The notes under the pieces were generated by a model. That model did not search any database and was not told the DNA's origin. It saw only the letters and a list, made by a program, of their open reading frames with translations. From NCBI RefSeq assembly GCF_964355755.1, contig NC_092672.1, positions 17,001,237-17,065,236 of the forward strand: DNA of 64,000 nt. The letters are read 5' to 3'. This document shows positions 32,273 through 64,000 of this stretch, piece by piece. Source of the DNA: Antedon mediterranea (taxonomy: Eukaryota > Animalia > Echinodermata). How positions within the stretch are numbered: the stretch's first letter is position 1; the number at the start of each line of letters is the position of its first letter. The translations under genes and the position numbers were made by a program.

Positions 32273-32434
32273 ATAGAAAATATGCAAAAACGAGAAACCG
32301 ATATGGTTTCTACGTTTCAAGACAGTTTGCTTTCGATGGCCGATACTTTGCGTGATGAGATGCGCCAACAACTGACAAAACGAAAGCGTCTTCCTCAATG
32401 CGGCAATATTAAGAAAAAACAACGAATCCATTGA
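32273..32434 (+). pseudogene. 3' fragment of a duplicate of the 38128..39702 gene, 5'-truncated by the satellite
   Basis: Near-identical to 39541..39702 (offset 7268 bp); encodes IENMQKRE...KKKQRIH*. Confidence 0.92.
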
Positions 32435-33680
32435 CTTTAAAAAAAAACAAACATTGTTGTTGTTTTTGTAGTAATTTTGTTGTTGTTAGTAATTTTTTAT
32501 TGTACAAATCAATGCCGTAATTGTAGTAGTAGTAATAGTAGTAGTGATAATAATAATAATTAAACGTTTCATTATTTCTATTTATAATTTATTGTACAAA
32601 TCAATGCAATTTTAACGTTGCGTCTACCTCAATATAATAGTAACAACGAATTCATTAAGAAAACTAAAAATTGTAGTGTAGTAATAATCAATTCAATGCC
32701 GCAATAAACATTGTAGTAATAGTAGTGATAATACAATTAAACGTTTGAAAGAAAAAAAAAATATTGTGTTTTTTCTCTCTTCCAACGCGATGACGACGAC
32801 GACGACAGAATTTTATGTGATTGTGAGAATGTTGATGAAGAAATAAAGAGAGAGAGAGAGAGACATGGATACGGTTTGCTTAGACACCCATGGATATTGA
32901 CACCGTCAGTCCAGTCAAAAAATCACCCTCACCATGGTATAAGAACGTACCCTAATAAAATTTCATCCGTAGGTTCTATGTATATAGGTAATAACATTTC
33001 TTGATGGTTGCGTCTTGCAAAACTTGGGATTTTACGAGAAAATTAGACTTTTTATACCCAATTTATAACCGCCTCATGTCGTATTATTGTGTACAGCGAA
33101 TGCGACGAAGCGTGACTGAAATTACGAGACGCCGTTAGCGCCCGTTGAAAAATGCATTAACAAAGCTAAAAACGTACAAAATTAATAGTTTATACAAAAA
33201 TTTAAATATAGTTTACAATAAATTGTATAATAAAATACATAACATTATAAACAAAACCCAATTATAAACTAAAATATTTACAGATATGTGTTTAAAAATG
33301 TACAAATCAAAATGGCCTTTCATAGAATAAAGTGCGCCCTCACGCGTCATACTTTTATCGGACTTGTATGAATGATTATAATATACGAAACCCGATGCGG
33401 TTTGTTAGTTATTGCCTCTGCAAGAGGCAGAATATTATTATTATATTTTCACAAATATATTTCTAGTTTTTATTATGGAAAAAAAAAAGGATTGTATATA
33501 TTTAAACACATTAAAACCTCCAGTCTACCATCATGATGGATTAAGTGAAGCGCCGTATTGTATCTGCTAAACGGTAATGATCTCCTAGTTATCTGGTTAG
33601 CCTATATTCTTGACATTCTTTTTCTAACAGCATTACTTGCGCGGATATCACAATGCATTGTTTATTCGCGATTATAGTCA
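32273..33680 (+). repeat. ~1.4-kb direct repeat, copy 1 (copy 2 at ~39541..41050)
   Basis: Colinear and near-identical at offset ~7268 bp, diverging after ~40680. Confidence 0.9.
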
Positions 33681-36600
33681 ATGTTAAGTTGAGTAAGCCG
33701 CGCAATCAGTAACATGCATAACATGCCGTGCATTCATCGCGCGTTGTATAATTATTATACATGGTTTCTTAAATCCAAACACACTCTTATTCTAGAATGT
33801 TCATGTAGATACATACACCGTCTCTTTACCGATCGAGTTGATACGGTCGTGCAATCAGTAAGAGGCATAACATGCCGTGCATTCATCGCGTGTTGTATAC
33901 CGAGAGAACCAATTTAAAATATTGTTTACTTCGAGAAGAAGCAATACACCGTCTCTTTTTACCGATCGAGTTGATACGGTCGCGCAATCAGTAACAGGCA
34001 TAACATGCCGTGCATTCATCGCGTGTTGTATATATACAATAATGTTTATAACTTTCCAGATCATACTTCTTATTCTATTCGATTACAGTTTCTAATGATA
34101 GCATACTTCAGGAAACAGCGCGAGTCAATGTTTTCAAGCATTCAGTTCACCCAAACGGAGAGAGAACACTACCCGTTCCCTCTTCTTGTATACGATATGT
34201 TCGTAACCTTCTAGATGATACTTCTTACTCTATTGGTATTACAGTTTCTAATCATACTTTTGGAATGTTTCTGATTGTTCTTATAATAATTATTATACAC
34301 GGTTTCTTAAAATCTAAACACATTCTAGAATGTCCATGTACATGTTACTGTATAATGTTGGAAAATTTTATGATGACGGTTAAACATATTCAATACCGAG
34401 TGGCAGAGGCACGCATTATAGGCGAGATATAATATTATCTAACTTGCCGTTTAAGACAATTGCATTGGTTCGATGTATGAAATGACCCTTTAACAGTTGT
34501 ATGACAAAACCATTCTTCAATACTCCCGCACCAATGGACAATGCATGTCTCTTATTGTAAACGCTTTCAACTTGGTCATCTGTCATCATTGTTTAGAACA
34601 AAAAAAAGACAGAAAACTGGTACCCGTTTGCATTCATTGGATGTATGAAATGACCCTTTTAACAGTTTTATGAGAAAATTATTCTTCAATACACGCGCAC
34701 CAAAGAGGACAGTGCGTGTCTGTTATTGTAAACGCATTCGACTTGGTCATCTGTCATCGATAATTCTTTAGAACAAAAAAGAGACAGAAAACTGGTACCC
34801 GTTTGCATTCGTTTAATCAATTCAATGCCGCAATTTGTAGTAATAGTAGTGATAATACAATTAAACGTTTGAAAGAAAAAAAAAATATTGTGTTTTTTCT
34901 CTCTTCCAACGCGATGACGACGACGACAGAATGTTATGTGATTGTGAGAATGTTGATAAAGAGAGAGAGAGAGAGAGAGAGACATGGATACGGTTTGCTT
35001 AGACACCCATGGATATTGAATGTTGAGTCCAGTCAAAAAATCACCCTCACCATGGTATAAGAACGTACCCTAATAAAATTTCATCCGTAGGTTCTATGTA
35101 TATAGGTAATAACATTTCTTGATGTTGCGTCTTGCAAAACTTGGGATTTTACGAGAAAATTAGACTTTTTATACCCAATTTATAACCGTCTCATGTCGTA
35201 TTATTGTGTACAGCGAATGCGACGAAGCGTGACTGAAATTACGAGACGCCGTTAGCGCCCGTTGAAAAATGCATTAACAAAGCTAAAAACCTACAAAATT
35301 AATAGTTTATACAAAAATTTAAATATAGTTTACAATAAATTGTATAATAAAATACATAAAATTATAAAGAAAACCCAATTATAAACTAAAATATTTACAG
35401 ATATGTGTTTAAAAATGTACAAATCAAAATGGCCTTTCATAGAATAAAGTGCGCCCTCACGCGTCATACTTTTATCGGACTTGTATGAATGATTATAATA
35501 TACAAGGCATTAATATACAAAACCCGATGCGGTTTGTTAGTTTATTGCCTCTGCAAGAGGCAGAATTTTATTATTATATTTTCACAAATGTATTTCTAGT
35601 TTTTATCATGGAAAAAAAAAAGGATTGTATATATTTAAACACATTACAACCTCCAGTCTACCATCATGATGGATTAAGTGAAGCGCCGTATTGTATCTGC
35701 TAAAGCGTAATGATCTCCTAGTTGTCTGGTTAGCCTATATTCTGGACATTCTTTTTTTAACAGCATTACTTGCGCGGATATCACAATGCATTGTTTATTC
35801 GCGATTATAGTCAATGTTAAGTTGAGTAAGCCGCGCAATCAGTAACATGCATAACATGCCGTGCATTCATCGCGCGTTGTATAATTATTATACATGGTTT
35901 CTTAAATCCAAACACACTCTTATTCTAGAATGTTCATGTAGATACATACACCGTCTCTTTACCGATCGAGTTGATACGGTCGTGCAATCAATAAGAGGCA
36001 TAACATGCCGTGCATTCGTCGCCTGTTGTATATATACAATAATGTTTATAACTTTCCAGATCATACTTCTTATTCTATTCGATTACAGTTTCTAATGATA
36101 GCATACTTTAGGAAACAGCGCGAGTCAATGTTTTCAAGCATTCAGTTCACCCAAACGGAGAGAGAACACTACCCGTTCCCTCTTCTTCCTTGTATACGAT
36201 ATGTTCGTAACCTTCTAGATGATACTTCTTACTCTATTGGTATTACAGTTTCTAATCATACTTTTGGAATGTTTCTGATTGTTCTTATAATAATTATTAT
36301 ACACGGTTTCTTAAAATCTAAACACATTCTAGAATGTCCATGTACATGTTACTGTATAATGTTGGAAAATTTTATGATGACGGTTAAACATATTCAATAC
36401 CGAGTGGCAGAGGCACGCATTATAGGCGAGATATATTATCTAACTTGCCGTTTAAGACAATTGCATTGGTTCGATGTATGAAATGACCCTTTAACAGTTG
36501 TATGACAAAACCATTCTTCAATACTCCCGCACCAATGGACAATGCATGTCTCTTATTGTAAACGCTTTCAACTTGGTCATCTGTCATCATTGTTTAGAAC

Positions 36601-36810
36601 AAAAAAGAGACAGAAAACTGGTACCCGTTTGCATTCATTGGATGTATGAAATGACCCTTTTAACAGTTTTATGAGAAAATTATTCTTCAATACACGCGCA
36701 CCAAAGAGGACAGTGCGTGGCTGTTATTGTAAACGCATTCAACTTGGTCATCTGTCATCGATAATTCTTTAGAACAAAAAAGAGACAGAAAACTGGTACC
36801 CGTTTGCATT
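32690..36810 (+). repeat. Tandem duplication of a ~2.1-kb AT-rich noncoding unit (~32690-34810 and ~34815-36810) with internal ~165-bp and ~139-bp subrepeats
   Basis: GAGACATGGATACGG at ~32862 and ~34981; identical spurious ORF starts at 33714/35847 and 34005/36005; subrepeat GATGTATGAAATGACCCTT at ~34472, 34640, 36474, 36641, with variants at 36817 and 37269. Confidence 0.9.
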
Positions 36811-37498
36811 TGGTCGATATATGAAATGACCCTTTAACCGTTTTATGAGAAAATTATTCTTCAATACACCCAGCACAAAGGAGGACAGTGTCATGGTCAT
36901 TGGTCATCATCAATCATTCGTTCGATAATTCTTTAGAACAAAAATAATAGATACTTTTGGAATGTTTTTATAATAATTATTATACACGGTTTCTTAAAAT
37001 CTAAACACATTCTAGAATGTTCATTTAGATGTTACAGTATATAAAATTAGGAAATAGTAATTCATTACCTCTACCGCTCTCAATCACATGATAATCTTTT
37101 AACGAAGGAGGGTGAGTTGAAATTGGTTTAGAACTTGATACCAAGGTTCATTATACGATGGCAAACGATGCCAAAACATTTTCAATACCGATACAGTTGC
37201 CAAAGGTGCGCATTATAGGAGGCGCGTTATAATATCTAACTTGCCGTTTAAGACAATTGCATTCATTCGATGTATGAAATGATCTTTAACAGTTTTATGA
37301 CAAAACTATTCTTCAATACCCACGCACCAAGGACAGTGCATGTATTTTATTGTAAACGCATTAAACTTGGTCATTTCTTATTTATATGCACATATTATTT
37401 ATTTTTGAAAAAAAAAAAAAACATAATCATTCAACAACAACAACGCTGTTATATATGTATTATCAAATACAAATGTTTTCAACTGCCTCTCGCTTGAA

Positions 37499-37902
37499 TC
37501 ACATGATGTCTTGTAACGAAGGAGGGTGAGTGGAATGATTAGGTAGACTTGAGTTCAAGGTCCATATGATGCAAACGACGACGATGATGATGATTCCAAA
37601 CAGCAATCCTGCAATAGACCATCTCTTTGCCGATCGTGCTGATCTGGCTGCACCCTCACCGTCACCGTAGTCGAACTTTCTCGAACTCTGTAAAAGTAAA
37701 AGAATAGAAACTAAAATAGATTAAAAAAAATTTAAAAAAAAGTGTTGATGGGATGAGGTTGTAGAGGAAATAGATTACTTACATCTACGCTGTACACGAT
37801 TCCTATAATACCGAATGGAATACAGCATAATAAAGTCACGAGTATAGCTGAAATCAGGTAATTGTTAGGTCTTCTCGCCACTATACGGGAAACAGATTGC
37901 AT
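37499..37902 (-). CDS. CD225/dispanin (IFITM/PRRT1-like) membrane protein, two exons: complement(join(37499..37687,37783..37902)), 102 aa
   Basis: Exon 1 reads MQSVSRIVARRPNNYLISAILVTLLCCIPFGIIGIVYSVD. A phase-0 GTAAGT...TTTTACAG intron (37688..37782) is followed by exon 2, SSRKFDYGDGEGAARSARSAKRWSIAGLLFGIIIIVVVCIIW. This matches the CD225 pattern (CC-x-P-x-G; GD-x-EGA...S..AK.W). Confidence 0.9.
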
Positions 37903-38127: not shown

Positions 38128-39702
38128 ATGGATCATTGCGATATGGACATGTTTTTAGAAAACCTATTAGCGTTCGATTCAACAGACGACGACATATTAA
38201 AGACGGCAATGTTGGAATTGCAAGACCCGGTCGAACCAGTTTTCATGGAGTACCAACAAGAAGATGATATAGCATCAGAACAACAACCACACCCATCACC
38301 ACCACCACCGACGCCGCAAGAATCAACAAAGGCAAACACGATGATAAATGTTCGAGGCAGTCTCGGTAAACTAATTGCTTTCTGCGATGGATCTGAACAT
38401 ACACTAACGCAATCATACGGTCGAATGATCGGATCTTTGCAAAAGGCAAAAGGACGCATGCACGAGATGCCAATGTTATTGATGTGTACGGACGGTGAAG
38501 AAGAGTACGCGGTTGTTGCAAGTGTTCTGGAATCATCGCGACTTGTCGAATCTACAATTGAAAATCAAGTCATGAGTGTACTTGGAGAAAACAATAGGAA
38601 AACAATAATGCAGCAATACGGTAGGGACAACGTGTTTATGAACGTTTCTTCACGAAATAAAAACTGTGTTGCTGACTTTGTCGGCGCCGATGTATCGACG
38701 ATGCCCGTGCCGATTTTTGACATAATAAATGGCGACGTGAAACGTATTTGTTTCTATATGGCACTCGGCTGTCTCTACAGTCCACAATGCGATGATGATG
38801 TTGCGTCGTCGTCGTCGTCGTCGTCGCCGCCGATGAATGGCGTTCAACTTAGAACTCCAAATGGAGTTGTCTATACGGCCGCCATCATGCCGATAACTGT
38901 AAAACGACGCATGCGACTAGAGTTGACTCTGGATAACGAATTGGACAACGGTAAACTGGAAGAGTTGCAAATTACGGTGACCAACAACAACCGTATATTG
39001 TTATTGCATAAACAAGAAAAAAGAACCTATCACTGCGGTGCGGACATGAAGTATCCCATAACTTTGCACGGTGCCTTTTCCACACCGTGCGCATCGGAGA
39101 AAAAGAATGGTGTTGCCACCGCCATTGCGAATATTGCCAAAACCAATTCAATCAACAAAACACTATTTGCTAGATTTGTTGGACGAGCGATGGAATCACA
39201 TGCAAGCAGTGATTGGACTGCCATAATAAACATTCTTCAGATATCAGATCAAATGACGAAATTAAAAGAAAAATGTGAGTACAAACGAAAACGAATCTTA
39301 AAAGATTCTCTAATAGACAAGTATCCTTCAACAAGAGGTTTTGTTAGTGATGTAAATAATTTACCCTCATCTAACATTGGCATTCAACAACTGATAAGCC
39401 AATTGGAGCAGGCACGCCAAGATTTACGCGAAACAGAGACCAAATTGAGTACTTTACAAACACAATTCAATAACATGTTGATAGAATTCCAAAATCACAT
39501 CACCAAATCGGAAGAAAGAGAAATCAAATATCAACAAGTAATAGAAAATATGCAAAAACGAGAAACCGATATGGTTTCTACGTTTAAAGACAGTTTGCTT
39601 TCGATGGCCGATACTTTGCGTGATGAGATGCGCCAACAACTGACAAAACGAAAGCGTCTTCCTCAATGCGGCAATATTAAGAAAAAACAACGAATCCATT
39701 GA
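38128..39702 (+). CDS. Orphan 524-aa probable nuclear protein (acidic N-terminus, C-terminal coiled coil, basic NLS)
   Basis: Long intronless ORF with first ATG at 38128. It has an acidic/Pro-rich N-terminus, a heptad-like segment QQLISQLEQARQDLRETETKLSTLQ and a C-terminal KRKR...KKKQR. Confidence 0.85.
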   Translation: MDHCDMDMFLENLLAFDSTDDDILKTAMLELQDPVEPVFMEYQQEDDIASEQQPHPSPPPPTPQESTKANTMINVRGSLGKLIAFCDGSEHTLTQSYGRMIGSLQKAKGRMHEMPMLLMCTDGEEEYAVVASVLESSRLVESTIENQVMSVLGENNRKTIMQQYGRDNVFMNVSSRNKNCVADFVGADVSTMPVPIFDIINGDVKRICFYMALGCLYSPQCDDDVASSSSSSSPPMNGVQLRTPNGVVYTAAIMPITVKRRMRLELTLDNELDNGKLEELQITVTNNNRILLLHKQEKRTYHCGADMKYPITLHGAFSTPCASEKKNGVATAIANIAKTNSINKTLFARFVGRAMESHASSDWTAIINILQISDQMTKLKEKCEYKRKRILKDSLIDKYPSTRGFVSDVNNLPSSNIGIQQLISQLEQARQDLRETETKLSTLQTQFNNMLIEFQNHITKSEEREIKYQQVIENMQKRETDMVSTFKDSLLSMADTLRDEMRQQLTKRKRLPQCGNIKKKQRIH

Positions 39703-41050
39703 CTTTAAAAAAAAACAAACATTGTTGTTGTTTTTGTAGTAATTTTGTTGTTGTTAGTAATTTTTTATTGTACAAATCAATGCCGTAATTGTAGTAGTAG
39801 TAATAGTAGTAGTGATAATAATAATAATTAAACGTTTCATTATTTCTATTTATAATTTATTGTACAAATCAATGCAATTTTAACGTTGCGTCTACCTCAA
39901 TATAATAGTAACAACGAATTCATTAAGAAAACTAAAAATTGTAGTGTAGTAATAATCAATTCAATGCCGCAATAAACATTGTAGTAATAGTAGTGATAAT
40001 ACAATTAAACGTTTGAAAGAAAAAAAAAATATTGTGTTTTTTCTCTCTTCCAACGCGATGAAGACGACGACGACAGAATTTTATGTGATTGTGAGAATGT
40101 TGATGAAGAAATAAAGAGAGAGAGAGAGAGACATGGATACGGTTTGCTTAGACACCCATGGATATTGACACCGTCAGTCCAGTCAAAAAATCACCCTCAC
40201 CATGGTATAAGAACGTACCCTAATAAAATTTCATCCGTAGGTTCTATGTATATAGGTAATAACATTTCTTGATGGTTGCGTCTTGCAAAACTTGGGATTT
40301 TACGAGAAAATTAGACTTTTTATACCCAATTTATAACCGCCTCATGTCGTATTATTGTGTACAGCAAATGCGACGAAGCGTGACTGAAATTACGAGACGC
40401 CGTTAGCGCCCGTTGAAAAATGCATTAACAAAGCTAAAAACGTACAAAATTAATAGTTTATACAAAAATTTAAATATAGTTTACAATAAATTGTATAATA
40501 AAATACATAACATTATAAACAAAACCCAATTATAAACTAAAATATTTACAGATATGTGTTTAAAAATGTACAAATCAAAATGGCCTTTCATAGAATAAAG
40601 TGCGCCCTCACGCGTCATACTTTTATCGGACTTGTATGAATGATTATATATATACAAGGCATTAATATACGAAACCCGATGCGGTTTTTGTCATACTTTT
40701 ATCGGACTTGTATGGCCGGATGGTTACACAGTACACGGCATTAATATACGAAACCCGATGCGGTTTGTTAGTTATTGCCTCTGCAAGAGGCAGAATATTA
40801 TTATTATATTTTCACAAATGTATTTATATTTTTTATCATGGAAAAACGGATTGTATATATTTAAACACATTACAACCTCCAGTATACCATCATGATGGAT
40901 TAAGTGTATATTTGTATATCTGCTGAAGCGTAATGATAGATAGTTCCGCTGGTTTTATTTTGGACATTCTTTTTTTTCCACAGCATTAGGCCTACTTGCG
41001 TGAATATCACAATGCATTGCATATTTTGAACTATCATTCGCGATTATAAT
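39541..41050 (+). repeat. ~1.4-kb direct repeat, copy 2
   Basis: Matches 32273..33680. Confidence 0.88.
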
Positions 41051-41529
41051 CTTAATTAGAGTAAGAACCAATTATTTAAGGATAATCCATTTCGCGTAAG
41101 CGCGCCTCCTATACGAAAGATACTACCTCAAGTAGACCTACTTTCACTTTCCAACAATTATTAAGAGCGTATCAAAGGGGCTGGTTGGCATTCGTCTGAA
41201 TCAACATTTTTCATTTTCCCCTTTCACCCGCCGCCACCCACCGCTGCCCACTGCCAATGGGGAGGAGGAGCCGGTTTGATCCTCTCTGAATCCGTCTGGC
41301 CTTCACATCGTACCGATGTGTGAAGTTTGAGCCAATAAACTTCATTCATGACGATTCTTTAAGTTCGAAGTCGTCTTCCAGAATTCAAAGCATTCTAAAG
41401 TTAAAGTGTTTTTCCACTAAATAAAAGAGAGAGTGAGAATGTTGGAGTGTGATGTAAGATTCGCGAGAAACTACATACTGTATTACCCAATTCTCCTTTT
41501 TTAAGTATTAAATACTTTCTAATAATATT

Positions 41530-41671
41530 AAGTCTAATTTTCTCGTAAAATCCCAAGTTTTGCAAGACGCAACATCAAGAAATGTTATTACCTATATACA
41601 TAGAACCTACGGATGAAATTTTATTAGGGTACGTTCTTATACCATGGTGAGGGTGATTTTTTGACTGGACT
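41530..41671 (-). repeat. Inverted copy of a ~140-bp element also present at ~32908, ~35026 and ~40176 (probable host MITE fragment)
   Basis: Reverse complement reads AGTCCAGTCAAAAAATCACCCTCACCATGG...GAGAAAATTAGACTT and carries the GATGTTGCG variant of the 35-kb copy. Confidence 0.85.
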
Positions 41672-41967
41672 AAAATAATCCATTAATCAATAAAAATTAT
41701 GCATTTTTAATTGTTGATTTTATATATGAAGATGATAATAAAATTAAAAGAAATTAAAGTGTAATCTTTATTCGTATTAATAATAATAAATAATAAATAA
41801 CATTTATAAAGCGCAAGAGACTAAGGTTTCATTGTTTAAGGGTGTAAAATCTTCAAAGGCTGTTTTCTAATTGTTGATAATCTATTGAATTCGGAAGTGC
41901 TTTGTTGAATTCGGAAGTGCTTTGTTGAAATCGGGTCATATCTTAATTGCCTTGAAAGAAATTATAA
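41672..41967 (+). repeat. ~300-bp dispersed repeat; second copy at ~49380..50137 is interrupted by a LINE
   Basis: Shared blocks AAAATAATCCATTAATCAA...GTAATCTTTATTCGTATT and CTTCAAAGGCTG...GCCTTGAAAGAAATTATAA. Confidence 0.8.
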
Positions 41968-42577
41968 AGCAAGTTACATTATTTTTTCGAAAGCTTAAAG
42001 AATGGAGATTAATATTATAATAATAATAAAAAAATATTTAATTGTGCTACATGATAGTGTACTTTCTAATTATACAAACCTAACCCTCTAAATAATCTCT
42101 CTCAACTATTGAAAAAAAAAAAATGCATGTCCTTGACACACCTTGAACCGATGGCTGTGTGCAACGTTAAAGTCACTAGACTAAACATTTCGGTTGGCAA
42201 AACATGTTTACACAAGATACTCTATATAGCACACTCTATACTATATGTACATCATTTCTGCAGACAGAAACGTATACCGAACTTGCTATAGTTTTATAGA
42301 AAGATACCTCTTGACAGTAACACTAAATCGTAGTAACAACGAATCCATTGAGAAAACTTAAAATTATATAGTGTAGTAGTAATCAATTCAATGCAGCAAT
42401 AAACATTGTAGTAATAGTACAGTAGTGACAATAAAATTAAACGTTTGAAAGAAAAAAATATATATTGTGTTTTTCTCTCTTTCAACGTGATGACGACGAC
42501 AGAATGTTATGACTATAAATGTGATTGAGAATGTCGAGGGAGGAGAGAGAGAGAGAGAGAGAGAGAGTGAGAAAGAC

Positions 42578-42754
42578 ATGGATTCGTTTGTTTATACACG
42601 CATAAATACTGTATGTTGTATCGTCAGCACTATTTGTTTGCTATTGATTCTGTTATTAATAGCATTGGTCGTACATTACGCGAGAATATTAACAAAAAAA
42701 AAAAGCACCTTCCATTTACAAACCAAACACAGTAAACAAACACTAATTGTATAA
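42578..42754 (+). CDS. Small single-pass membrane protein (58 aa)
   Basis: MDSFVYTRINTVCCIVSTICLLLILLLIALVVHYARILTKKK: hydrophobic span plus basic stop-transfer. It follows a (GA)n tract and ends 9 bp before the next gene. Confidence 0.55.
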   Translation: MDSFVYTRINTVCCIVSTICLLLILLLIALVVHYARILTKKKSTFHLQTKHSKQTLIV

Positions 42755-42763: not shown

Positions 42764-43150
42764 ATGATTCTAGAAGTCAAAACTATCACTATCACTTTGT
42801 TGACAATCGTATGCATAACGTTGCTACTTGTCTACGTGTCCCGTGGAAGAAATAGCGCATGCAACGAACGGTTGTGTGGCATCAGTGGACGAATGGAGTA
42901 CGATGGTGTATCGAAATATTGCGTGTGTGTAGGCGATGGCGTCTCCGGAGCCGTGTGCAAACAATCGATTCCTAAAACAACAGTAAACTGCACGACGTGT
43001 ACAGCGCATAATGGCCGATGTGTATACTCTGACGCCGCAGACGGTAACTATTGCGTGTGTCCCAACGATCGTTTCGGATTCTCGTGTGAGTATCGGTACG
43101 TCGGTGGTGTATCGGCAGCGATGTTAGCGTACGTTCAGGCTTGTCTCTAA
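42764..43150 (+). CDS. Membrane-anchored or secreted protein with two EGF-like domains
   Basis: N-terminal hydrophobic helix followed by C...C...YCVC.....G..C and C..C....G.C.........YCVCP..RFG..CE, i.e. EGF-type cysteine spacing. Confidence 0.8.
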   Translation: MILEVKTITITLLTIVCITLLLVYVSRGRNSACNERLCGISGRMEYDGVSKYCVCVGDGVSGAVCKQSIPKTTVNCTTCTAHNGRCVYSDAADGNYCVCPNDRFGFSCEYRYVGGVSAAMLAYVQACL

Positions 43151-43191: not shown

Positions 43192-43887
43192 ATGGGCATT
43201 AAACTGGCCTTGTTCGAATGCGCTTATCGATGGTTGCCCATTCAACCGTATTTCTACATATCTATCATACTTTTCATAACGTTCAGTCTCATCAGTTATG
43301 TCATCGTAGCGTCCAGAGCCATCGTCGGCAACGTATGTAAAGTATTGTCCGCTGTAACGAAACAAGTGGAGCGAATCATCATCAGTCAAGCCAAGAAGAA
43401 AAGTTTACGCGTGTACATGCATCAATTCCAGGCTCTGTGGCACACCATCGACGGATGCGAAGCTTTTCAAACTTGGTATCAAGTCGTACGTTACGGATTT
43501 CACAGAACGATGGGATACGTTTTCTGTGACAAAATGCGATGGTTTTACTCGATAACGTTCACTCGTTATCTTGTCTATTATCCAATGAATCTACTCGTAT
43601 GGCAACCGACGCACGGTGACTGCTCCGTCAGTTATCAGGACGATATCTGCTTTGCCTTTCATCTAAATCTAATCTTGGACGTGATTCGGCGATATCTTAT
43701 CATATCCGTCGTGGTTTTGTACAATACTTGGCCTCTCGTCTCTCATTATATGGCCACATTAAAACGCATCTTTAGAACTTTGCATCGAGAAATGTGCTAT
43801 CAGTTGCACAGACTTGATCCCGGCGGTCATTCTTTGACGCGCGGACGCTTTGCAAAACGAATCAAACATTTTTTTCACTTTGATTGA
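43192..43887 (+). CDS. Orphan membrane protein (231 aa)
   Basis: First ATG at 43192 (MGIKLAL); at least two hydrophobic segments; 3' end overlaps the convergent gene by 13 bp. Confidence 0.72.
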   Translation: MGIKLALFECAYRWLPIQPYFYISIILFITFSLISYVIVASRAIVGNVCKVLSAVTKQVERIIISQAKKKSLRVYMHQFQALWHTIDGCEAFQTWYQVVRYGFHRTMGYVFCDKMRWFYSITFTRYLVYYPMNLLVWQPTHGDCSVSYQDDICFAFHLNLILDVIRRYLIISVVVLYNTWPLVSHYMATLKRIFRTLHREMCYQLHRLDPGGHSLTRGRFAKRIKHFFHFD

Positions 43888-44750
43888 TGAAATGAATGAT
43901 CTTCGGCCAGAGCACTTTCAGCCACTTTGCGGTTATGCACGTGCATTCTGGCTCCAGCGCATATTGCGTAGACAGACACGATCGCTACTAAAAACGCTGT
44001 ACAACAGGTAATCAATTCTAGTGTACAATCACAGTCGTCTTCGTGTACAGTACTGGAGCAGCCTAACGACATCCATCGGTCCCAGTCCAATAGTTTGGTG
44101 GCGTTTCTGATGAGTTCCAGTCGAACACACTCTACACGCTCGACGAGCGTAGATCTAGACACTGTCATCGAGCCATACAGTCGATTCAACACAACAGAGC
44201 CACCGACGATCGAGTTTAAACTCACGTTGTGTACCCGCAACGTTTCTTCAGACAACAGCGGTGATACGTGAACGAGTATGGGCGGTGGCGCTGAATCGAT
44301 ATTCATTACATCATCATCATCACCACCACCACCACCACCACCGTGTACACCGAGACGCTCCAATGTAACGTTGTACACGCGTCCGACTCCTGTGAGACGC
44401 AGCGCAGACGACGAACGCGACCAGTTGTTGCATTTAAACGAAAAGTCTTGTACGTGAACGTGATCACCGATCAAAAACGACGTGCAATCATTCGCTGTCA
44501 CTATGATGCCTTTACCGCACAACGGTCGCACAGTCACGTTCGATACAAACACTTCATCATAACTAATACTCTCGAGACTAGAGGAAATGCACGAGGAAAC
44601 GTTTAACGCGTCGTCTGGAATAACAACGTACGTATCGTGTGCATCGTTTCTATAATTTATGTCTTTCAGGTAACCAACCTGCGACGACGTACATAATGAC
44701 TTGTTTGCAATAAACAGAAATAGAATCAGAATTATTTGTTTTTTATTCAT
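43875..44750 (-). CDS. Orphan type I membrane glycoprotein (291 aa)
   Basis: Signal peptide MNKKQIILILFLFIA, several N-x-S/T sequons, a beta-rich ectodomain, C-terminal TM (LITCCTAFLVAIVSVYAICAGA) and a short tail. Its ATG overlaps the upstream gene's stop (ATGA). Confidence 0.8.
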   Translation of the reverse strand: MNKKQIILILFLFIANKSLCTSSQVGYLKDINYRNDAHDTYVVIPDDALNVSSCISSSLESISYDEVFVSNVTVRPLCGKGIIVTANDCTSFLIGDHVHVQDFSFKCNNWSRSSSALRLTGVGRVYNVTLERLGVHGGGGGGGDDDDVMNIDSAPPPILVHVSPLLSEETLRVHNVSLNSIVGGSVVLNRLYGSMTVSRSTLVERVECVRLELIRNATKLLDWDRWMSLGCSSTVHEDDCDCTLELITCCTAFLVAIVSVYAICAGARMHVHNRKVAESALAEDHSFHQSK

Positions 44751-45598
44751 TTCGTTTCTATAACAAATTTAAAGTCGTCGACTGCAGCCAGTTCGTCTTC
44801 GCTAAAATTACAATTTCTCAACACTAACGTCACATGCTCCTTGTCAAACACACTTGACAATTGTATCGGAGATACGTCCATACATTCGATACACACCGTC
44901 ATCGGATAAGCGCTCGGCCGCATATCATTACCAAACGTCAGCCTGTTGCACCTTACAAGTCGAACGTCTTTCAAACCTCCTCCTCCTCCTCCTCCTCCTG
45001 CACCTCCTACATTTGTCATCAACGTAGATAAAAAACTGTCGACGATCGGCACATCTATCAAAGTTAAACGTTGCAGAGATTGTATGCAGAGTACACTTTC
45101 AGCAAACGTTCTTCCCATCGTGGCACGTTGTCGTTCGCGTATTGCCGCGATCAAAATCTCGTCTGGATCGTGCTCGACTGCTTCACTCACAAAACGTACA
45201 ATAGACCGCAAATCCATTTTCTGATCCTCTACGTTGTTGTGCATACGTTGCAAAATCTGAGCAATACACTTGCGTCTTCGACTCGCGCAAGTGCATTCGT
45301 TACAATATTTCCTGTCAATACGTACTACAGTCACGACGCATTTCTGACACGAAGACACCTTGCAATTTGCGCATCTATACATCATTTTACATGTATCGCA
45401 TGCTTTTGCGCCGCAGTGTATACAATTCTGTAGCAAGAATCGAGTGCACTTTCGACAACGATCCGTTTTCTCATCACCGTATATCAAGTCGTTCCAAACT
45501 TTTGAAATATTCGACGTACACAGTCGGCGTGTCGGATCATCTTTTAGACAATCGCGTATACTCAGGCATACCTCTAACGGTACCTTGATCATTGTCAT
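44747..45598 (-). CDS. F-box protein with CxxC-rich zinc-binding region and degenerate LRR-like C-terminus
   Basis: VPLEVCLSIRDCL...LCTSNISKVWNDLI fits the F-box consensus; six CxxC pairs; LQRLTL...LKDVRLVRCNRLT resembles LRRs. First ATG at 45598. Confidence 0.7.
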   Translation of the reverse strand: MTMIKVPLEVCLSIRDCLKDDPTRRLCTSNISKVWNDLIYGDEKTDRCRKCTRFLLQNCIHCGAKACDTCKMMYRCANCKVSSCQKCVVTVVRIDRKYCNECTCASRRRKCIAQILQRMHNNVEDQKMDLRSIVRFVSEAVEHDPDEILIAAIRERQRATMGRTFAESVLCIQSLQRLTLIDVPIVDSFLSTLMTNVGGAGGGGGGGGLKDVRLVRCNRLTFGNDMRPSAYPMTVCIECMDVSPIQLSSVFDKEHVTLVLRNCNFSEDELAAVDDFKFVIETK

Positions 45599-49930: not shown

Positions 49931-50293
49931 TTTAAGTGTGTAAAATTTAATGTAGATCCATTAATAATGACTAATGGTATTCAAGGCGAATGTGTTGTGG
50001 ATATTGAATAGAACCAAAGTACCGGTAATTGTCCACTGAACTTCAAAGGCTGTTTTTTAATTGTTGATAATCTATTGAATTCGGAAGTAATCTATTGAAT
50101 TCGGGTCGTATCTTAATTGCCTTGAAAGAAATTATAATTTCAACACAAGGCTCCGTTTGTTATGACACGAGCCATTTATTCTTCAGCCTTTGAATCAAAT
50201 TACATGTATTATTATTATTATATATTTTTTTTAAAAAGTATGAAGATTAAAAGTTATCGTTAATGTACAGCGTCGAGTGCACATGCGTGCGTG

Positions 50294-50866: not shown

Positions 50867-51288
50867 AGCTTTGTCACTCTGAAACGTTGAATACTTTTCA
50901 CACCACACCCACCACTATCAAGAAGTGTTTTGTGTATACACACACACGATATTAAAGTCTAATTTTTTTTTATAAACTATTATTTTACCATGCACAAATA
51001 ATATAGTATTCTCTGGATAATAAGTTCTCGAGCCGTGAAGAAACGGTACAAATATGTAATGCTCGCTTTCTACACTATACCGTTTCGATTTTATCAAGAA
51101 GCGAACAATATTATTTGTATACACACACTCACACACACGTACACAAGATAGTAAACTTGTTTACTCTTCTGACTTTTTGTGTGATTGCGCCCTCTGTATA
51201 TTTTTTATTATTTACCCATACACAAATGATTTTCACGGCTCCCATGATAATGAACAAGTCAGGCACCCTCAGTGTAAGCAGATAACGT

Positions 51289-52090
51289 CAAAGAATATTA
51301 TATCACAAGAATGAGAAATCCGTGATTTTCCATGTAACAGTAATTTGTCCATGTGGTAGGGGGCCGCCATAAGTGAGGATGTATCTGGGATGTATACAAC
51401 TTTTCATGATAAAAAAATGTTATCAACTAGATGCCAACATTATGTTAAATGCTATTTGGATATTTAATTGTTCGTTTTATGCAATTTATTTAGTAAAAAC
51501 TGCCGTATAAACAGTTTGCTTTATCAACCGGGCGCTACGATAGCGTGACCGGGCGTGTTGGTGTTTACGCGTTTTCACGAAGGATAGTTTAATAATATTC
51601 CTATATTTAACTTGTTTCTGGTAAAACAAATACATGTTAATGACATTTAACATTTTATCCTATTAATAACATGTATTTTATACTAATTTGTATCATAAAA
51701 ACAATACTTAATTTACCGGGCGTAGAGTACTACGCGGCAATGATAAGAATAGACCGTGCTGAGTAAGGATTCGTTGATTTTTGGTGTTGCTGTGTTAGGC
51801 CTTTTTTTGTGAACGAATTTAGCATGTTAGTAAATAATTGTCTGTAAATAAAGTGAATGTACACTAGTTTTTTTAATAAATATGTATTATAAAATATATT
51901 ACAATTGCAAAATATATTATCATAATTCTATTTAATGTGACATGTATAATACGGTATCTATTAAATCAAGTCTTATTTAGTATGTATACATCCCCCCTTA
52001 TGAGGGCGGACATCACTCTCTGGAGCTCTCTGTTACAAATATCTCATGAAAAAATCGCGGAATACTCATTCTTGTGATATATATTCTTTG
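51289..52090. mobile_element. Non-autonomous DNA transposon (P-element-like MITE), ~45-bp TIRs, 7-bp TSD ATAACGT
   Basis: Left end CAAAGAATATTATATCACAAGAATGAG, right end CTCATTCTTGTGATATATATTCTTTG; ATAACGT at 51282-51288 and 52091-52097. Confidence 0.85.
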
Positions 52091-53047: not shown

Positions 53048-55594
53048 CTATTTTCTTTTCAATACGCGCATGACAGTACCACTAGAAAAAACCGTTATAT
53101 CAAAAATGTTATTTTTGAATGGTAGAGTTGTCTCCACCATTCCTAAATTTTCGCTGCAGATAGTAAATACGTCATTGACGTAATCTTCAAAGAATAGATT
53201 TTGGAACACAATAACGCGTTTGCATCTATTCAAATACCTCATTATGGTTTGTTTGTCTTTTGTTGGCTTCATTCTGATATACGTGAAGCCATTCCATTTT
53301 AATATATCTGCTACTTTTGCCGTGTCACTGTTATGTACAGCAGAGCACGACGAAGCTATCAGGTAGTCTATATTGCTGTTGTTGTCGTTTTCGGAATCAA
53401 AGGCGTACGTTTCCTTAAAAGGCAGAAGTGTGCTTTGCCTGTGAAAGAAAACATGACGTAAATAAAAAATAATGATTTTCGGGTTTTTGGGGAGCATTTT
53501 CCTGCATGAACAAGAATAATAGTTGGTGAACCTACCATGAAAACACGCCTCTGGTTCGTTGAGGGCGTTTACAACGACCCGTCGAATGTAACGGTTGTTG
53601 CTGTGTTGATTCTATATGAAATCAAATATATATAATATTATATTATAACAATCATATGAGCAGCGTTAAATAGTATCGTTCGCCAACAATGCATTTACTT
53701 TAATTTACCTTTGTCCACGGTTTCTTCTTCTTTCGGGTTGAACGGGTGCTCTTCCGAGGGAACTCTTACGAATGTACTATGAATAAATTATATATATGTA
53801 TATATGAATCGAATAAATAAACAAAAATGTAATGTCAAGAGAAGAAAAAATACTTACGGCATTATTGGTATTCTTGTTACTGAAATTATAAAAAAAAAAA
53901 GAAGAAAAACTGGTTTTATTATACAACTAATAGTACGTGGTGCTGGTGCTAGTTTGCAACCAATTAAAACATATACAAGGCTTCTCGGAGAAGGATTTAC
54001 TACTGGATGTGTTCAGGGTACACATCTGATTCGTGCCCTCTTTGAATATTTATTTATGCCAATGAGCATCAAGTTTTTCAGTATGAATCATATCTATCTA
54101 AATATCTATATTATAAGTAAGAGACAAACAAACAAACAGACAGACGTACAAACTCTCTCACTTATAATATAGATATATAACGTTAGTATTGTATTTACCT
54201 TTAACACTATCTTTCCATTGTGAAACATTCTGAACTGATGTTCGTTGTACTAAAACCAAATTTAAAAAAAAAAAAAAAGTTGACAAACCACAATCATTGT
54301 CATTATGCGCTGCATAACACGGTAAAAAGGGTTACTAATTGGATACATGCAAACAAGCTATCACTAAATATGCTAAAAAACAATTTTATGTTGTTTAGTA
54401 ACAAATAATATAGTATGTTACCAAAAGATATTATTTTCAACAATGTTCCTATTAATCAAATAACCAACACAAAATTTCTTGGTATATTTATTGACGACAG
54501 ACTTGACTGGAAAGCCCATGTTAATTACCTTTGCAAATTATTATCAAAAAAAATGTTGGCATGATGTATAAATTGAAATCAATATTTCCTCAAAAAGTAT
54601 TAAATATTTTATATTCTACTCTTATTTTATCGTACTTAAATTATGGTGTTCTTGCTTGGGGAAATGCTTCAAAATCAATTATTACTAAAATTTTATTAAT
54701 CCAGAAACGAGCTGTCAGAATTATCTCAGGGGTAATTTTTCGTGCTCACACCCAAGATCTCTTTCAAAAAAAAAATAAAATATTAAAAATTGAGGATCTC
54801 TATAGATTTAATGTTGGTGTCATCATGTTTCAATTAACCGCCCGACACCTATAATATCCAGTAAATTCACTTAAAATAAACAATACCACACTCACCAAAC
54901 AAGACAAAAAGATTAGTATCACCTGCCATTTACTCGAACTAAAATGAATACCCTTGTATACACTGGACCTAAACTCTGGAATTCTCTTCCTTTATCTCTT
55001 AAAAAAATCTCATAACTGTGCTTTATTTAAACGTCAATTTAAACTATTATTGGTTGAAGGTTCTTTGTAAATTCTTTTATTATTGATGTATTTGATATTT
55101 CTTAAATAATTTATATAATCTATTTTTTACTTGTTTTTTTTTTTAGTTTTAAACATGTTAAACTTATGTGTTAGAGAAAAGATATTAGTTTAATTGTTGT
55201 TATTTTTTTTTTGGAGTTTCTAATTGTGTTATAATATTATTTCTATTTTATTTGTTTTGTTTTGAGGAGCCTATTCACAACAAGCTTTGCTTTCTTTTAG
55301 GCTCCTCCACTTTATATTTATATATTTGTAAAGTGAAATAAATAAATGAAATGAAATGAAAAGATATATTACAATATTCTTGATAATATCGAATCATGCC
55401 CTTGTAAAACTATGGTAACATTATTTCTTCTTGATAAAACAAAAACAACAAAACTAGTGACACTATAGAAATAATATTACGTTGCTAAATCAAACAATAC
55501 ACATTTATGAATTACCTTCAACATCGTCAGTCCACCACGGAGTCATCCACATTGTATGTTCTTGCACTTTACACTTAGCTGTTTGCTGAGACAT
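53048..55594 (-). CDS. Six-exon orphan gene, 228 aa: complement(join(53048..53438,53536..53611,53709..53776,53858..53879,54199..54249,55516..55594))
   Basis: All five introns are GT..AG with pyrimidine-rich acceptors. Exon lengths 79+51+22+68+76+391=687 nt splice in phase from ATG to stop with no internal stop (MSQQTAKCKVQEHTMWMTPWW...SWQSTLLPFKETYAFD...RVLKRK). Confidence 0.78.
54104..54174. repeat. 71-bp hairpin/mini-MITE in intron 2
   Basis: ATCTATATTATAAGT...ACTTATAATATAGAT inverted arms around an (ACAA/ACAG)n core. Confidence 0.65.
54320..55361 (+). mobile_element. Decayed 5'-truncated CR1/L2-like LINE inside intron 1 of the six-exon gene
   Basis: Frameshifted RT C-terminus (WIHANKLSLN, KFLGIFID, LYSTLILSYLNYGVLAWG, QKRAVRII, GPKLWN), 3' hairpin GAGGAGCCT..AGGCTCCTC and (GAAAT)n tail. 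Confidence 0.88.
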
Positions 55595-55908: not shown

Positions 55909-55961
55909 GAGGCAAGATTGTGTATTTTTAATGTTTAGTTAAAGTCGCGCGGTTGTTGAAA

Positions 55962-58900
55962 ATGAGTAAATCTGAGAGTACAGCCGATGATCTACTGCCA
56001 TGTGAATTATGGCCGGGCAGTCGAATTACGGACGATATTGTGTTTGGTGAACCCATGCACATCATGTGCGTCGAGTTGAAATCGTTTGAAATACCGACAA
56101 ACTCGCTGCGCAATTGCTCCCCGCATACGTACATAATGATGATGGTGTTGTTGAGAAAAGCGTTACAGTTGCACTGCAACGATGAACAGCACGCACTGGT
56201 GTGCTCTCTTATTGAACCTAGTCGCATCGTGGATGAAACGGTTCGGGGTAAGGTGTCGTGCGGTTACGTGTTCTGGTTGATCTTCCCACGACGTTTGCAC
56301 AAAATGTTACAGTACGTTGTCAAGTCCATACTGTTGATAAACAACGGATACCTGCCAGCATGGGACACAACATTCTTGACAGACGTCCGATGCGAAATGT
56401 TTTCCGACAACGATCTTGATGATGATGATGATGATGATGACGACGATGATGATGATAATGAACCGAAACGTAAAAAGACAAAACGTAAACGAAACGATTC
56501 AGCAACGGCGACAATAAAATATGCATTTAAACATTTCGATTGCCGATTGGGTCGTGGAACGTCGCAAATGAAACGAACCAAGATAAATAGCTATGTTCCA
56601 CACGTGACAGTGCTCGGGGATTTTGAAAGAAGCATTGAAAAATATTTCTGTTTAGACATACCGAAAATCGAAGGCAATCGATTGCCCCCGACTGTTAGAG
56701 AACAAGATACAGCAGAGGCGTGGCAAAAGCGCGCAGATCTGTTTACACCAAAGACTCTTTTTTCGTCATCTAGACGTGCAACTCATCGACGTGAGCTGAC
56801 ACGTTTGATTGCAAATGAATCGAGTAATGCGCTAACTCTCGATCAGTTGATGACAATTGCCGACAAAGAATTGAATCTACCTCCGACTCTTAAACTGTCT
56901 TTGCAACAGATTGATCCGAGAGTTATAATGAACGAAGGCGATAGTCGTTGTGTAAGCTTCCAACATATGAAAGCGTGGATATTGGAACCTCACATGTACG
57001 AGGCGAATTATTTTTTGAAAAGACACTTTCCTGCACTTGAAAGTGATACGAACATTGGTAATACAAAATTGTTTGTTCACGCTATGCGCGATGATGCAGC
57101 GCAATTGGACGAAGACAAAATTTCGGCAATCGGAAAACTGTATGTAACCAACCAGAATCAGAACGAAGTGACCATAGACTCGAGGTACGTATTTTATAAT
57201 CATCATCATCATCATCATCATCATCACCACAACACAAATTGTAGTGTGCGTGTTTTACTTTTGATTTATAATTGTTTTCGTTTTGTTTTTTGTTTTTTTT
57301 TTTTTTCTTAATAGGCATTTATACGGTGAAAAATACACGGCAAAGAATCCGGGCATAGTGATGATGAGAAAGATTTTTCACAATTTGCAATTGACTCCGG
57401 AAAGATACCGTGACAAGACTGTCGGCAAAATTTTCTTTGACATGTACACGCAAGTGCATATGGGAAGACACGTGCAAATGAGCGAAGTAATAACGCAATC
57501 GTATGCCGATATGTGGGATACCGAGATGAAGGGTTGGTGTATGAACGCGTCTAGACACAGTGACGGCAGTTTTGTTCCATTCGTATACGAAGAGGAAACT
57601 GACGTGAAAATATCGATAGGTTATCGATATCTTTTGAACATGGTGGCTCTGATAGGTAATGTGGCCGGTGTGTCTAACGCTAAAGGTGAACTTTTGTACA
57701 TTTTACTGTCGGCTATACGTATCGTATGCCCACACGATGCGATGGCCATGCACGCCATTCTGGTTGGACCTCCCGGTACGGGTAAAACGTCTGTGATGGT
57801 AGCCGCTAAATCTGTAATCGGTAACGCTTACTCAGACGACGTTACTTACCGAACACAGAAAGCCGTGCTCGTCGATAATGAGCGAAAGTACAAAAATTCA
57901 AAAAAAATACGCTTCATGAACGAATTTGTGCCACCGTCGTCTGGATCTAAAAGCGATAAGAATCCGTTGTCAATTGAAAGCAGTCAAGAAGCGGCAATAA
58001 TGAAAGAGGAACTCGATTCCGGCTGTACGCGCACCGAACGAACCGAGAAGGTAACGGATCCGAACACGGGAACCACTCGACACGGTGTTCGAACCGTAAT
58101 CAACGTTTGCGATAATGCCACCATAATGGCCATGAACGAAAAAAACTTGTGTAACTCGTTAAACGAACGAGTTGTCACTTTTGACGTGGCACCCAGTGGT
58201 GTTGTCAACGTGCCCAAGAAAATGGAGGGATACGAGAAGGAATTGGATCGTTTAAAAATTCGAACGCAATTCGGCGCTCTGCGCCACAAAGTAATGGAAC
58301 ATGTACGGTTGGCAGAGTGCGGTCTGTATCCACGTCGATCGGAAGGAGATTCGTACAAAGACGATCGTATGCTACTGTTGACTTGCGATAGAATATCTGT
58401 CGAATTGGAAAGGCAAGGAGTCCGATTCGGATTCGCCACAGAAACTAGAACCATCAATAAACTCATCGACCTGGCACGTTTGTGCGCCTTTCACAATGCA
58501 GTGATTCAAGTGAACGGCTGTCCGTTACAAAGTCTGCACGCCAATACACCTCGATTACCGAACGAGAACACTTGTTGTCTCAATTCAAGAATCATAGCCA
58601 AACATCAACGGTGGCTGATGCAACAGGACATGAAGCGACTACACGACATGGTAATGTCCGAGGCGCAGCCGGATCCTGCTGATATTTTGTTTGCATTTTC
58701 GTTAATGTGTCCGATGCCACAGAACGAACTGATAATCGTGAGAACGATAGCGGATCAGTTGATTGATCCTTCTCATGATCCCGTTCATCGAGATGGTGAA
58801 ACTTACTTTGAATTGACGTGCAGGAGCGAAGAGGCGCTTCTGTCCATTTTAGAGCGCAAAACGGGTGTTGCTCGCAAACAATGTAAGGAAATATTGTTGG

Positions 58901-60321
58901 CTATGCACAGTGGACGGAGTAAGTTGTTTCGAAAAATGGACGATAACGGACAAAAACAGCTTCTGTTCAAATGTAGCGAGGCAACGGAAGCTCATCTTTC
59001 GTCACATGCAAACGAGTACCGTGAAATATCGGACGTGATGATGGCAGGAATGTGCAATGCAAAACAGTACAGGGGAAAACATTACATATACGTTATGCTC
59101 AATGGAAAACTTACACAAGCCGCACGCTTCTTGTCTCATTTGCCCGTCTTCGCTCGACATATGTACTGGGGCCAGTCAAACTCTCAAGATCCCAAATCCA
59201 GCATCAATTATCTAGGATCGGTGCCGAAAAAGTTTACCAACGAAGAAAGATACTGGATAAAAATAAATTTAGATTTTCACGAGACCCGACTGGCGTACGT
59301 TAGGAAACTCGCAATCCAATCGTGTGTGACTGGAGACTGCGACGAAAACGGATCAATTGCGGTCGGTGTTGACGTGAAAGAGATTGCCGACAGTTTAAGG
59401 GTGTTGAAATGCAGATCATATGACGGTAGCAGAGATAGACTACCGATGCCACCGCCGGTGATGAACAACGATCACACGTGCAGATTGGTATTGGAAACGT
59501 CGAACGCTCGAGCCTTTATGGTACACGTTAGCGTCTTTTTGCCACAACATAGACGTTTGAAAAAAATACTCGAATTGTGCACAAAGGTTGTGCTCGAAGA
59601 TAAAAACGCGTGCCGAGGTAATCGAATACGCGTTCTGGTAAATGACGAGTTCGAGGCGGATGAGCTGAGAAACGGTGTGAATTTGCTAACAAACGACTTG
59701 AGACACTTGATCAATTCTTCTTCGATCATCTCGGAAACACCACCACCGAACGTATTCTTTCACGTAAATCTGTTGACGTTGAATTCATTGGAAGACGCGT
59801 GTAAGCATTACAAAGTGAAAGCCGGCGAATCAATGATCAAGAGTGTATTGGAAAAGTGCGTGTTTAAAAATATGACTGAACGTAAAACCATCATGTACGT
59901 GGATCGTAGTACAAGAGATGTGTTTCAGACGTTAGACATTCAGCAATTGGCCGAAAAGAACGGCGGTAGTCTACCGGTACACAAGTGTAAAAATCCGTAT
60001 CTGACACAAACGCTTCGAAATCCAACAACCGAGGTAGTAGATCGTGATAGATTAAGATTCAAGTTAGAAGAACCGCAATTTCTTGAAGCCGAACCGTCGC
60101 ACGTTCAACGACGAAAAGCATGGATTAGAATGTTGTCCGATGGTACGGAGATTAAACTGAGAGAACGATTTGGACACGACGTGGACACTTATTTACGCCA
60201 CATAAGACTCGTAGAAGATGCAATTATAGAAAAGGACAAACTGCACGCATTCAGACCACTGGTTTACAAGACTGGTGAAAAGAAACTTTCACCGTGTACG
60301 TGCTCAAAACAAACGTTATGA
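55962..60321 (+). CDS. Large spliced MCM-like AAA+ ATPase/helicase, join(55962..57184,57315..60321), 1409 aa
   Basis: A 130-bp GTACGT...TTCTTAATAG intron joins the two long ORFs in frame (IDSR|HLYGEK). Motifs: Walker A ILVGPPGTGKT, Walker B IRFMNEF, AIMKEELDSG, sensor-1 TIMAMN, Arg finger SLNER, sensor-2-like ETRTINKLIDLA, in MCM order; NLS PKRKKTKRKR. Confidence 0.85.
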
Positions 60322-63707: not shown

Positions 63708-63738
<31 letters not shown>

Positions 63739-64000
63739 TCAAATCAATTCTCGAACCCTAGCCTAATGCTACAGCGTTACATTACGAGACTCAAGAACTA
63801 ACCATTCAGCTGGCTTACAATCTATCGATACCATAACATTATTAGTAATTTATCAAAAACTATATAGGGGCTTAATATCGGTAAATATAGAATCTAGGAT
63901 TGGATTTACGACTGGGCGCGTAGAGGCAGCAGGTTCAAATTGTTAGTATACCAAAATGATTATATATCGAAACGAATCACTCTATCACACATATTCGGGA
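61036..64000. repeat. ~0.9-kb tandem repeat with alternating A/B variants (~1.87-kb higher-order unit), running off the window
   Basis: Unit start GAGACTCAA(G/C)AACTAACCATTCAGC at 61036, 61917, 62901 and 63786 (periods 881, 984, 885). Confidence 0.93.

Follow-up and report, generated by a model that had tools for sequence, protein, structure and literature searches.

A stretch of 64,000 nucleotides from Antedon mediterranea (contig NC_092672.1 of assembly GCF_964355755.1, positions 17,001,237 to 17,065,236 of the forward strand; hereafter the window) carries, from position 32273 to its right-hand end, an element that we explain as a part, integrated into the germline and since rearranged, of a large DNA virus that replicates in the nucleus and is probably a deeply branching relative of the allo- and malacoherpesviruses. 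We place the chances of this explanation a little above even, the viral identity being one that we infer. The herpesvirus-related part of the reading follows from two independent leads, namely the matches between the predicted structure of a 1,409-amino-acid ATPase and the alloherpesvirus protein Allo56, and the occurrence of a CLCC1 homologue reduced to its conserved core. An earlier note, made from the sequence alone, had proposed a virus that was either deeply herpes- or mirusvirus-like or the founder of a new animal group; the herpesvirus branch of that proposal has gained these two leads, and nothing pointing to mirusviruses was found.

The ATPase gene (55962..60321, forward strand; exons 55962-57184 and 57315-60321) is predicted to encode an AAA+ protein with a winged helix. 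A six-sequence core profile searched against 1.84 billion representatives gave 34 matches at E<=0.001, of which 22 reached 1e-10 or better; 25 matches, including four of the seeds, span long stretches, and nine that were confined to the P-loop were dropped. Judged by its sequence, the predicted ATPase belongs to an unnamed family with members of 1.2-1.7 thousand amino acids, whose 25 clusters, when looked up, bore no name other than "hypothetical protein", apart from empty placeholders and an unrelated label attached to a 32-residue fragment, and none of whose members passes a Pfam cut-off. Relatives of 1,375-1,502 amino acids align as single proteins across both exons, with identities of 22-40% over exon 1 and 31-51% over exon 2. 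In an alignment of 20 near-full-length proteins plus exon 2 (21 rows, six partial matches being left out), G156, K157, E203, K230, D234, G236, R242, N274, R285 and R378 are invariant in 21/21 rows and, from their positions, appear to include Walker A, the Walker B Glu, sensor 1, the Arg finger and a sensor-2-like Arg. The residues by which AAA+ proteins are recognised (Walker A Lys, catalytic Glu, sensor 1 and Arg finger) are thus conserved, and a predicted beta-hairpin precedes sensor 1. The residue before the Walker B Glu is N, S, G, P or E in all 21 rows, a departure from the canonical hhhhDE pattern. The family tree divides deeply into three groups, and 10 of the 13 distant members are matched by a profile built from the N-terminal part. 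Some members come from JGI/IMG metagenomes. P0022 lies on a contig of 1.34 Mb, P0081 on one of 176 kb, P0021 on one of 85 kb and P0018 on one of 67 kb, and these four are the most promising sites for capsid and polymerase genes; the contigs of P0003, P0006 and P0020 fall within an overall range of 38 kb to 1.3 Mb. Within exon 1, a poly-Asp tract followed by a basic stretch resembling a nuclear localization signal occupies 56417-56500, with an acidic tract at the same place in several relatives.

The AAA+ residues bear out one half of the MCM-type helicase suggested at first; the MCM half is not supported beyond the P-loop. Compared by hhalign with 60 of the 70 MCM segments collected, the family aligned over the P-loop region only, with a probability of 59 for the six-row and 38 for the 21-row alignment, and beyond Walker A the score was 15.6 against a maximum of 27.4 for shuffled sequences. 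Beyond Walker A, the alignment is thus within the shuffled controls, and Walker B lacks its Asp. Probabilities were higher for FtsH (92) and RFC (94) than for MCM (59), in a ranking that is biased since FtsH and RFC were chosen through the same P-loop word. The predicted ATPase resembles MCM and other superfamily 6 (SF6) helicases in its motif order and in the winged helix that follows the ATPase, but differs from them in the Walker B without Asp, in the lack of any profile match beyond the P-loop and in being about twice their size. SF6 helicases are given as absent from eukaryotic viruses in a 2016 survey (PMC4889955).

The winged helix corresponds to exon-2 residues 464-555, which align with CAP (Z 8.3, root-mean-square deviation [rmsd] 2.3, 68 aligned residues) and with the MCM8 winged helix (Z 6.1); it is a common fold. 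Searched with the ATPase model, the PDB gave no row at E<=0.001 and returned winged helices or generic helices only. When model 1 was compared with BFVD using Foldseek, the top four rows stood alone at E 2.7e-4 to 1.6e-3, with probabilities of 0.98-1.0, and comprised Allo56 of Lake sturgeon herpesvirus (E 5.6e-4, probability 0.98), ORF111 of ranid herpesvirus 2 (RaHV-2) and the unnamed A0A384ZV91 and D2E8E9. RaHV-2 ORF111 is presumably an Allo56 homologue. The row after these four had a probability of 0.12, and a baculovirus helicase ranked 43rd, with 0.04. The four top matches had template modelling (TM) scores of 0.13-0.16 and an rmsd of about 20-27 Å. Among viral structures, model 2 retrieved Allo56 at rank 4 (E 0.03), the only match of high probability (0.77); both models share the same sequence and hence are not independent. 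The Allo56 match is a lead from predicted structures, not proof, and the 1,409-amino-acid ATPase is possibly related to Allo56.

Besides giving the best named structural matches, the Allo56 family, which includes ORF56 of ictalurid herpesvirus 1 (IcHV-1), is similar to the window protein in size, the open reading frame (ORF) of acipenserid herpesvirus 3 (AciHV-3) Allo56 measuring 4,383 bp (PMC12031113). It differs in that the likeness is one of predicted structure, no sequence link having emerged from the family search, and in that the window gene has an intron. In esocid herpesvirus 1 (EsHV-1) and white sturgeon herpesvirus 1 (WSHV-1), Allo56 lies back-to-back with the DNA polymerase gene (PMC12567609), whereas no polymerase is seen beside the window ATPase. 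Allo56 is one of five alloherpesvirus core genes described as being of unknown function (PMC12567609), and neither an ATPase function for it nor a description of the present element appeared in the paper listings searched, which did not cover subscription papers.

The second lead is G9 (50294..50866, forward strand), an intronless gene for a 190-residue, core-only CLCC1 homologue, which upholds the CLCC1 module of the earlier note: its Pfam MCLC match (E 4.7e-16) covers model positions 213-349 of 549, and G9 alone passes a curated Pfam cut-off among the 12 element ORFs scanned. In a search limited to proteins of 105-335 amino acids, a range outside which the longer cellular CLCC1 forms fall, its relatives were P0009 and P0010, of 193 and 197 amino acids and 59% and 51% identical. 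Viral CLCC1 has been found only in the Allo- and Malacoherpesviridae, in shortened form and as the product of three separate captures, and host CLCC1 promotes the nuclear egress of herpes simplex virus 1 (HSV-1), according to PMC12639132. A shortened CLCC1, an accessory rather than defining trait of both families, is present here as G9. Like ORF57 of ostreid herpesvirus 1 (OsHV-1) and IcHV-1 ORF16a, it is shortened, intronless and set among virus-like genes; unlike them, it consists of little more than the conserved core, and within the size range searched its closest relatives are two unnamed proteins.

That the element is endogenous follows from insertion and deletion differences among its copies. 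The ATPase gene, whole or in part, was found in 11 sequencing runs from six studies, covering four organisms given by code and one further source, in shares from 0.97 to 0.06; runs X1-X4 may derive from the source sample itself, and X10 and X11, whose shares are small, were not counted as evidence. At least three organisms have near-identical DNA in their runs, in copies that lack the transposon insertions of the window or carry deletions. Contigs from eight of the 11 runs were compared with the window, their depths not being taken as copy numbers. The host insertion at 40169..42634, with a pair of approximately 143-bp inverted repeats (40176-40318 and 41530-41671), is absent from an X6 contig of organism B, which joins 40168 to 42635; the high-copy insertion at 51281..52089, resembling a miniature inverted-repeat transposable element (MITE) with inverted ends and an 8-nt duplication, is absent from element-bearing contigs of X5 and X9 (51280 to 52090); and a degenerate 3' fragment at 54328..55385 (forward strand), by eye like that of a long interspersed nuclear element (LINE), is absent from an element-bearing X5 contig (54327 to 55386). 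These three joints indicate that the copies of organisms B and C lack three insertions that the window copy has. Insertions of host transposons that differ between copies, a criterion for endogenous viral elements, are thus present in the element, and chromosomal integration as first proposed is supported by contigs that carry element genes and join across the insertions. All host insertions lie between genes, as the note had stated, and none was found within an intron, its other suggested location. Further differences include a deletion from 52540 to 56804 common to X5 and X9, by which G10 and the first part of the ATPase gene are lost, a skip of about 170 nt in ATPase exon 2 in an X8 contig, and 60 letter differences and 43 gaps relative to the window over 57316-60682 in an X5 contig. 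The X5 and X9 contigs give no cover over G6/G7, which proves nothing. The occurrence of the same internal deletion in the contigs of two organisms suggests a non-autonomous derivative that has spread.

Genes are tightly packed in the element. We count 12 on both strands in 37499-60321 (a CD225 gene, G1-G10 and the ATPase gene), where about 13 had been announced; the placement on both strands and the density hold, coding sequence making up 93% of the block 42764-48965. This block contains six ATG-initiated ORFs of at least 230 amino acids, against a mean of 0.012 and a maximum of 1 in 500 second-order Markov sequences used as controls. The overlaps and the divergent gap of about 100 bp were confirmed, at 13 nt for G3/G4, 4 nt for G4/G5 and 103 nt for G6/G7. 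The genes are mostly orphans, as claimed, for which Pfam, NCBIfam and PHROGs gave no cellular family; the latter two returned weak rows only for the 12 ORFs. The ten genes measured have observed/expected CpG ratios of 1.28-1.65, those of three LINE fragments being 0.32-0.57; the CpG-rich coding DNA first reported is thus real, but the MITE (1.27), local repeats (1.31-1.47) and satellite (about 1.2-1.3) are CpG-rich too, so that high CpG is not specific to genes.

Spliceosomal introns, another feature of the initial description, are supported as frame-consistent predictions in three genes. The ATPase gene has one GT..AG intron of 130 nt (57185-57314), flanked by phases 2+1 that together yield the 1,409-residue frame, the CD225 gene has one phase-0 GT..AG intron and G10 has three. 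All five are predicted splicing events, and the GT-AG boundaries make nuclear expression plausible.

If the element is indeed a herpesvirus-related provirus, it would act in the manner of BelcheriHV-1, Teratorn and similar integrated herpesviruses. The 1,409-residue protein, a possible homologue of alloherpesvirus Allo56, would be a ring-forming AAA+ DNA helicase or initiator that unwinds viral DNA in the nucleus, and the genes would be expressed by the host RNA polymerase II and spliceosome. The captured CLCC1 core may assist the passage of capsids through the nuclear envelope, the role that host CLCC1 plays for HSV-1, and the genes for the EGF-like, CD225 and membrane proteins may have been captured as accessories with which to modulate the host. 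Following integration, the route of which is not visible in the window, the copy would have gained transposons between its genes, undergone local duplication and been cut by the satellite, while sister copies would have suffered internal deletions.

Precedents for integration are provided by BelcheriHV-1 (PMC12373286), Teratorn (PMC5601938) and AciHV-3 (PMC12031113). Like the lancelet BelcheriHV-1 and the endogenous viral element of Capitella, the present element is integrated among repeats and has dense gene blocks (PMC12373286, PMC5552708). Whereas 27 of the 62 BelcheriHV-1 ORFs match malacoherpesviruses (PMC12373286), no window ORF is tied to one, a distinction drawn without direct comparison of the two sequences; motif searches of published supplements, including that of BelcheriHV, gave no sequence match. 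With Teratorn, a fusion of piggyBac and an alloherpesvirus, the element would share the condition of a multi-copy, germline, herpes-derived element, one that in Teratorn carries ORF56 (PMC5601938, PMC10175614). It differs in that the window copy is interrupted and rearranged, and neither a piggyBac transposase nor element terminal inverted repeats occur in the window, where the element ends do not appear.

Several observations weigh against a herpesvirus-related origin. The mean predicted local distance difference test (pLDDT) scores of the ATPase models are low (42.7 for model 1 and 40.6 for model 2, with the ATPase core under 50), three other matches outrank Allo56 in model 2, and across both models the Allo56 matches have TM-scores of 0.13-0.21, an rmsd of 19-28 Å and identities of 10-16%. 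None of the 25 ATPase-family clusters contains a protein named Allo56, and scans of viral contigs and metagenomes gave no true family member and no gene neighbourhood of a relative. G9 shows two hydrophobic segments in our scan, against three described for viral CLCC1 (PMC12639132), and, having been captured three times independently, CLCC1 marks a way of life and not ancestry. Scans of the 12 window ORFs with the three family databases brought up no viral hallmark gene, whether for a capsid, terminase, portal, PolB or primase, and no integrase, in an element that continues beyond the window, and the three telomeric motifs tested gave no repeat pairs in the window. Among rejected candidates, nine neighbourhood loci were generic FtsH- or RFC-like P-loop matches, and two further sets, of seven and 17 loci, gave no match on retest; a phage collection gave two weak matches, at E 0.9.

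A first alternative is an endogenous large DNA virus outside the Herpesvirales, whether a new group or a mirusvirus-like or naldaviral-like one, that would have acquired an Allo56-like ATPase by gene exchange and made its own CLCC1 capture. Such an origin, which we consider unlikely although deserving of attention, agrees with the lack of a sequence link to any named herpesvirus protein, with the three deep clades and metagenomic members of the ATPase family, with Atlas feature matches at 0.91-0.94 to phage and archaeal hypothetical proteins, and with the recurrence of CLCC1 capture (PMC12639132). However, the named structural matches are alloherpesviral, with the baculovirus helicase far down the list, neither viral-structure search with the ATPase models returned a mirusvirus-named match, and the host survey of mirusviruses excluded Metazoa and offers no link (bioRxiv 2024.01.18.576163). 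Less probable still is a giant capsid-less mobile element, self-replicating or transposing, that would be copied by the ATPase and carry captured cargo genes. No virion gene was recognised in 32 kb, and the deletion shared by X5 and X9 resembles those of non-autonomous derivatives; yet the same databases brought up no transposase, integrase or HUH domain in the window ORFs, the element runs off the window, and a core-only CLCC1 with several membrane proteins fits a virion-making cycle better.

Two further explanations are very improbable. A lineage-specific cluster of host genes under vertical inheritance would be in line with a gene order kept across at least three organisms, with spliceosomal introns and with CD225, CLCC1 and EGF being animal domains, but not with overlapping, intronless orphans that are 93% coding, a truncated CLCC1, an ATPase without any cellular family and copies in which large deletions cut into the ATPase gene. 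A chimera made in assembly, with the genome of a free virus attached to host satellite, would be a similarly poor account: the junction at 32273 lies within a duplicated segment beside the satellite, but high-copy host insertions inside the element differ between organisms, and X1 contigs match the window genes almost letter for letter. To return to the herpesvirus-related reading, its boldest form would see here an animal virus family that is deep within or beside the Herpesvirales, with widespread intron-bearing proviruses, an MCM-like AAA+/winged-helix replicative helicase corresponding to Allo56, and a further independent capture of CLCC1, serving nuclear egress; in this full extent it is a tentative proposal that we think rather unlikely to hold.

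Herpesviruses of invertebrates have been recorded in molluscs and, as a small number of integrated elements, in lancelets and an annelid; a lineage too divergent for sequence searches would widen this range. The ATPase family, which comprises some 25 unnamed proteins, offers a marker by which such a lineage can be found, and an AAA+ helicase or initiator represents a testable function for Allo56. A CLCC1 capture by yet another lineage would lend strength to the view that the gene is selected for its part in nuclear egress.

Among the remaining genes, a CD225/dispanin (IFITM-like) gene that the earlier note did not contain lies within the element on the reverse strand (37499..37902; exons 37902-37783 and 37687-37499) and is predicted to be spliced, with Pfam CD225 matches at E 6.2e-11 and 3e-7. 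Its intron is placed much as in host IFITM genes, which suggests that genomic DNA was the source of the capture. Of the other host-derived modules that had been proposed, the EGF module (G2, 42764..43150, forward strand; 128 amino acids) is weakly supported, with an N-terminal hydrophobic segment, an EGF-like pattern among 13 Cys and human EGF as its best PDB match at E 0.15. The F-box of G5 (44747..45598, reverse strand; 283 amino acids, 22 Cys) and the ubiquitin-like domain of G6 (45818..46744, reverse strand; a 308-residue orphan) were dropped, both being seen by eye at the protein start only: neither Pfam (E<=0.1) nor the PDB (E<=10) returned a match of the kind.

The other orphans comprise G1 (38128..39702, forward strand; 524 amino acids), with an acidic N-terminus, a predicted coiled-coil and a basic C-terminus; G3 (43192..43887, forward strand; 231 amino acids), with two hydrophobic segments; G4 (43875..44750, reverse strand; 291 amino acids), a predicted type I membrane protein; G7 (46848..47885, forward strand; 345 amino acids), divergent from G6; G8 (47940..48965, forward strand; 341 amino acids), with about five hydrophobic segments; and G10 (reverse strand), predicted to have four exons (53862-53858, 53776-53709, 53611-53536 and 53438-53048), the last exons of which may also be read unspliced. 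An Atlas search with G1 gave no usable match, and five of the 17 differences listed between G1 copies are silent, a biased subset that is uninformative on selection. No promoter motif common to the genes was found, and Rfam gave no match in the window.

To its left, the element meets a satellite array of 19/23-bp units (1..32272, no strand), which represents host context, shows a higher-order periodicity and is possibly centromeric or subtelomeric. The segment 32273..33386 (forward strand) adjoins the satellite directly and is a 99.6% duplicate of 39541-40655, a stretch that runs from the last part of G1 through the 3' flank of this gene into the host insertion. Non-coding DNA with an approximately 2.1-kb tandem duplication (32685-36810) and 171-175-bp subrepeats occupies 32685..37400. 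The left-hand repeats are thus local duplications plus a host insertion, indicating that satellite and element meet at a gene fragment and not at a terminal repeat, and position 32273 is a break within a G1 fragment, not the terminus of the element. This G1-derived copy and the tandem duplication rule out the left flanking repeats as element termini, which disposes of one side of the kb-scale flanking repeats noted originally. On the other side, a 44-bp minisatellite (60682-60956) just 3' of the ATPase gene is followed by CpG-rich tandem units of 0.9-1 kb (about 60950-64000) that run off the window; together they could be an origin or terminal repeat region.

As for the host repeats, 40176-41671 is a high-copy element of about 1.5 kb with inverted ends of about 143 bp, the left of which is also copied at 32908 and 35026. 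Another host repeat at 49089..50132 contains a nested 439-bp piece (49484-49922), LINE-like by eye, that is missing in the X1, X5 and X8 contigs. Two pieces of a common host repeat, 41672-41778 and 49380-49486, are 94% identical and lie in two intergenic insertions. Within the satellite, a LINE reverse-transcriptase fragment is present at about 2960-4700 (Pfam RVT_1, E 4.7e-31), with a 589-residue open frame at 2882-4651 on the reverse strand.

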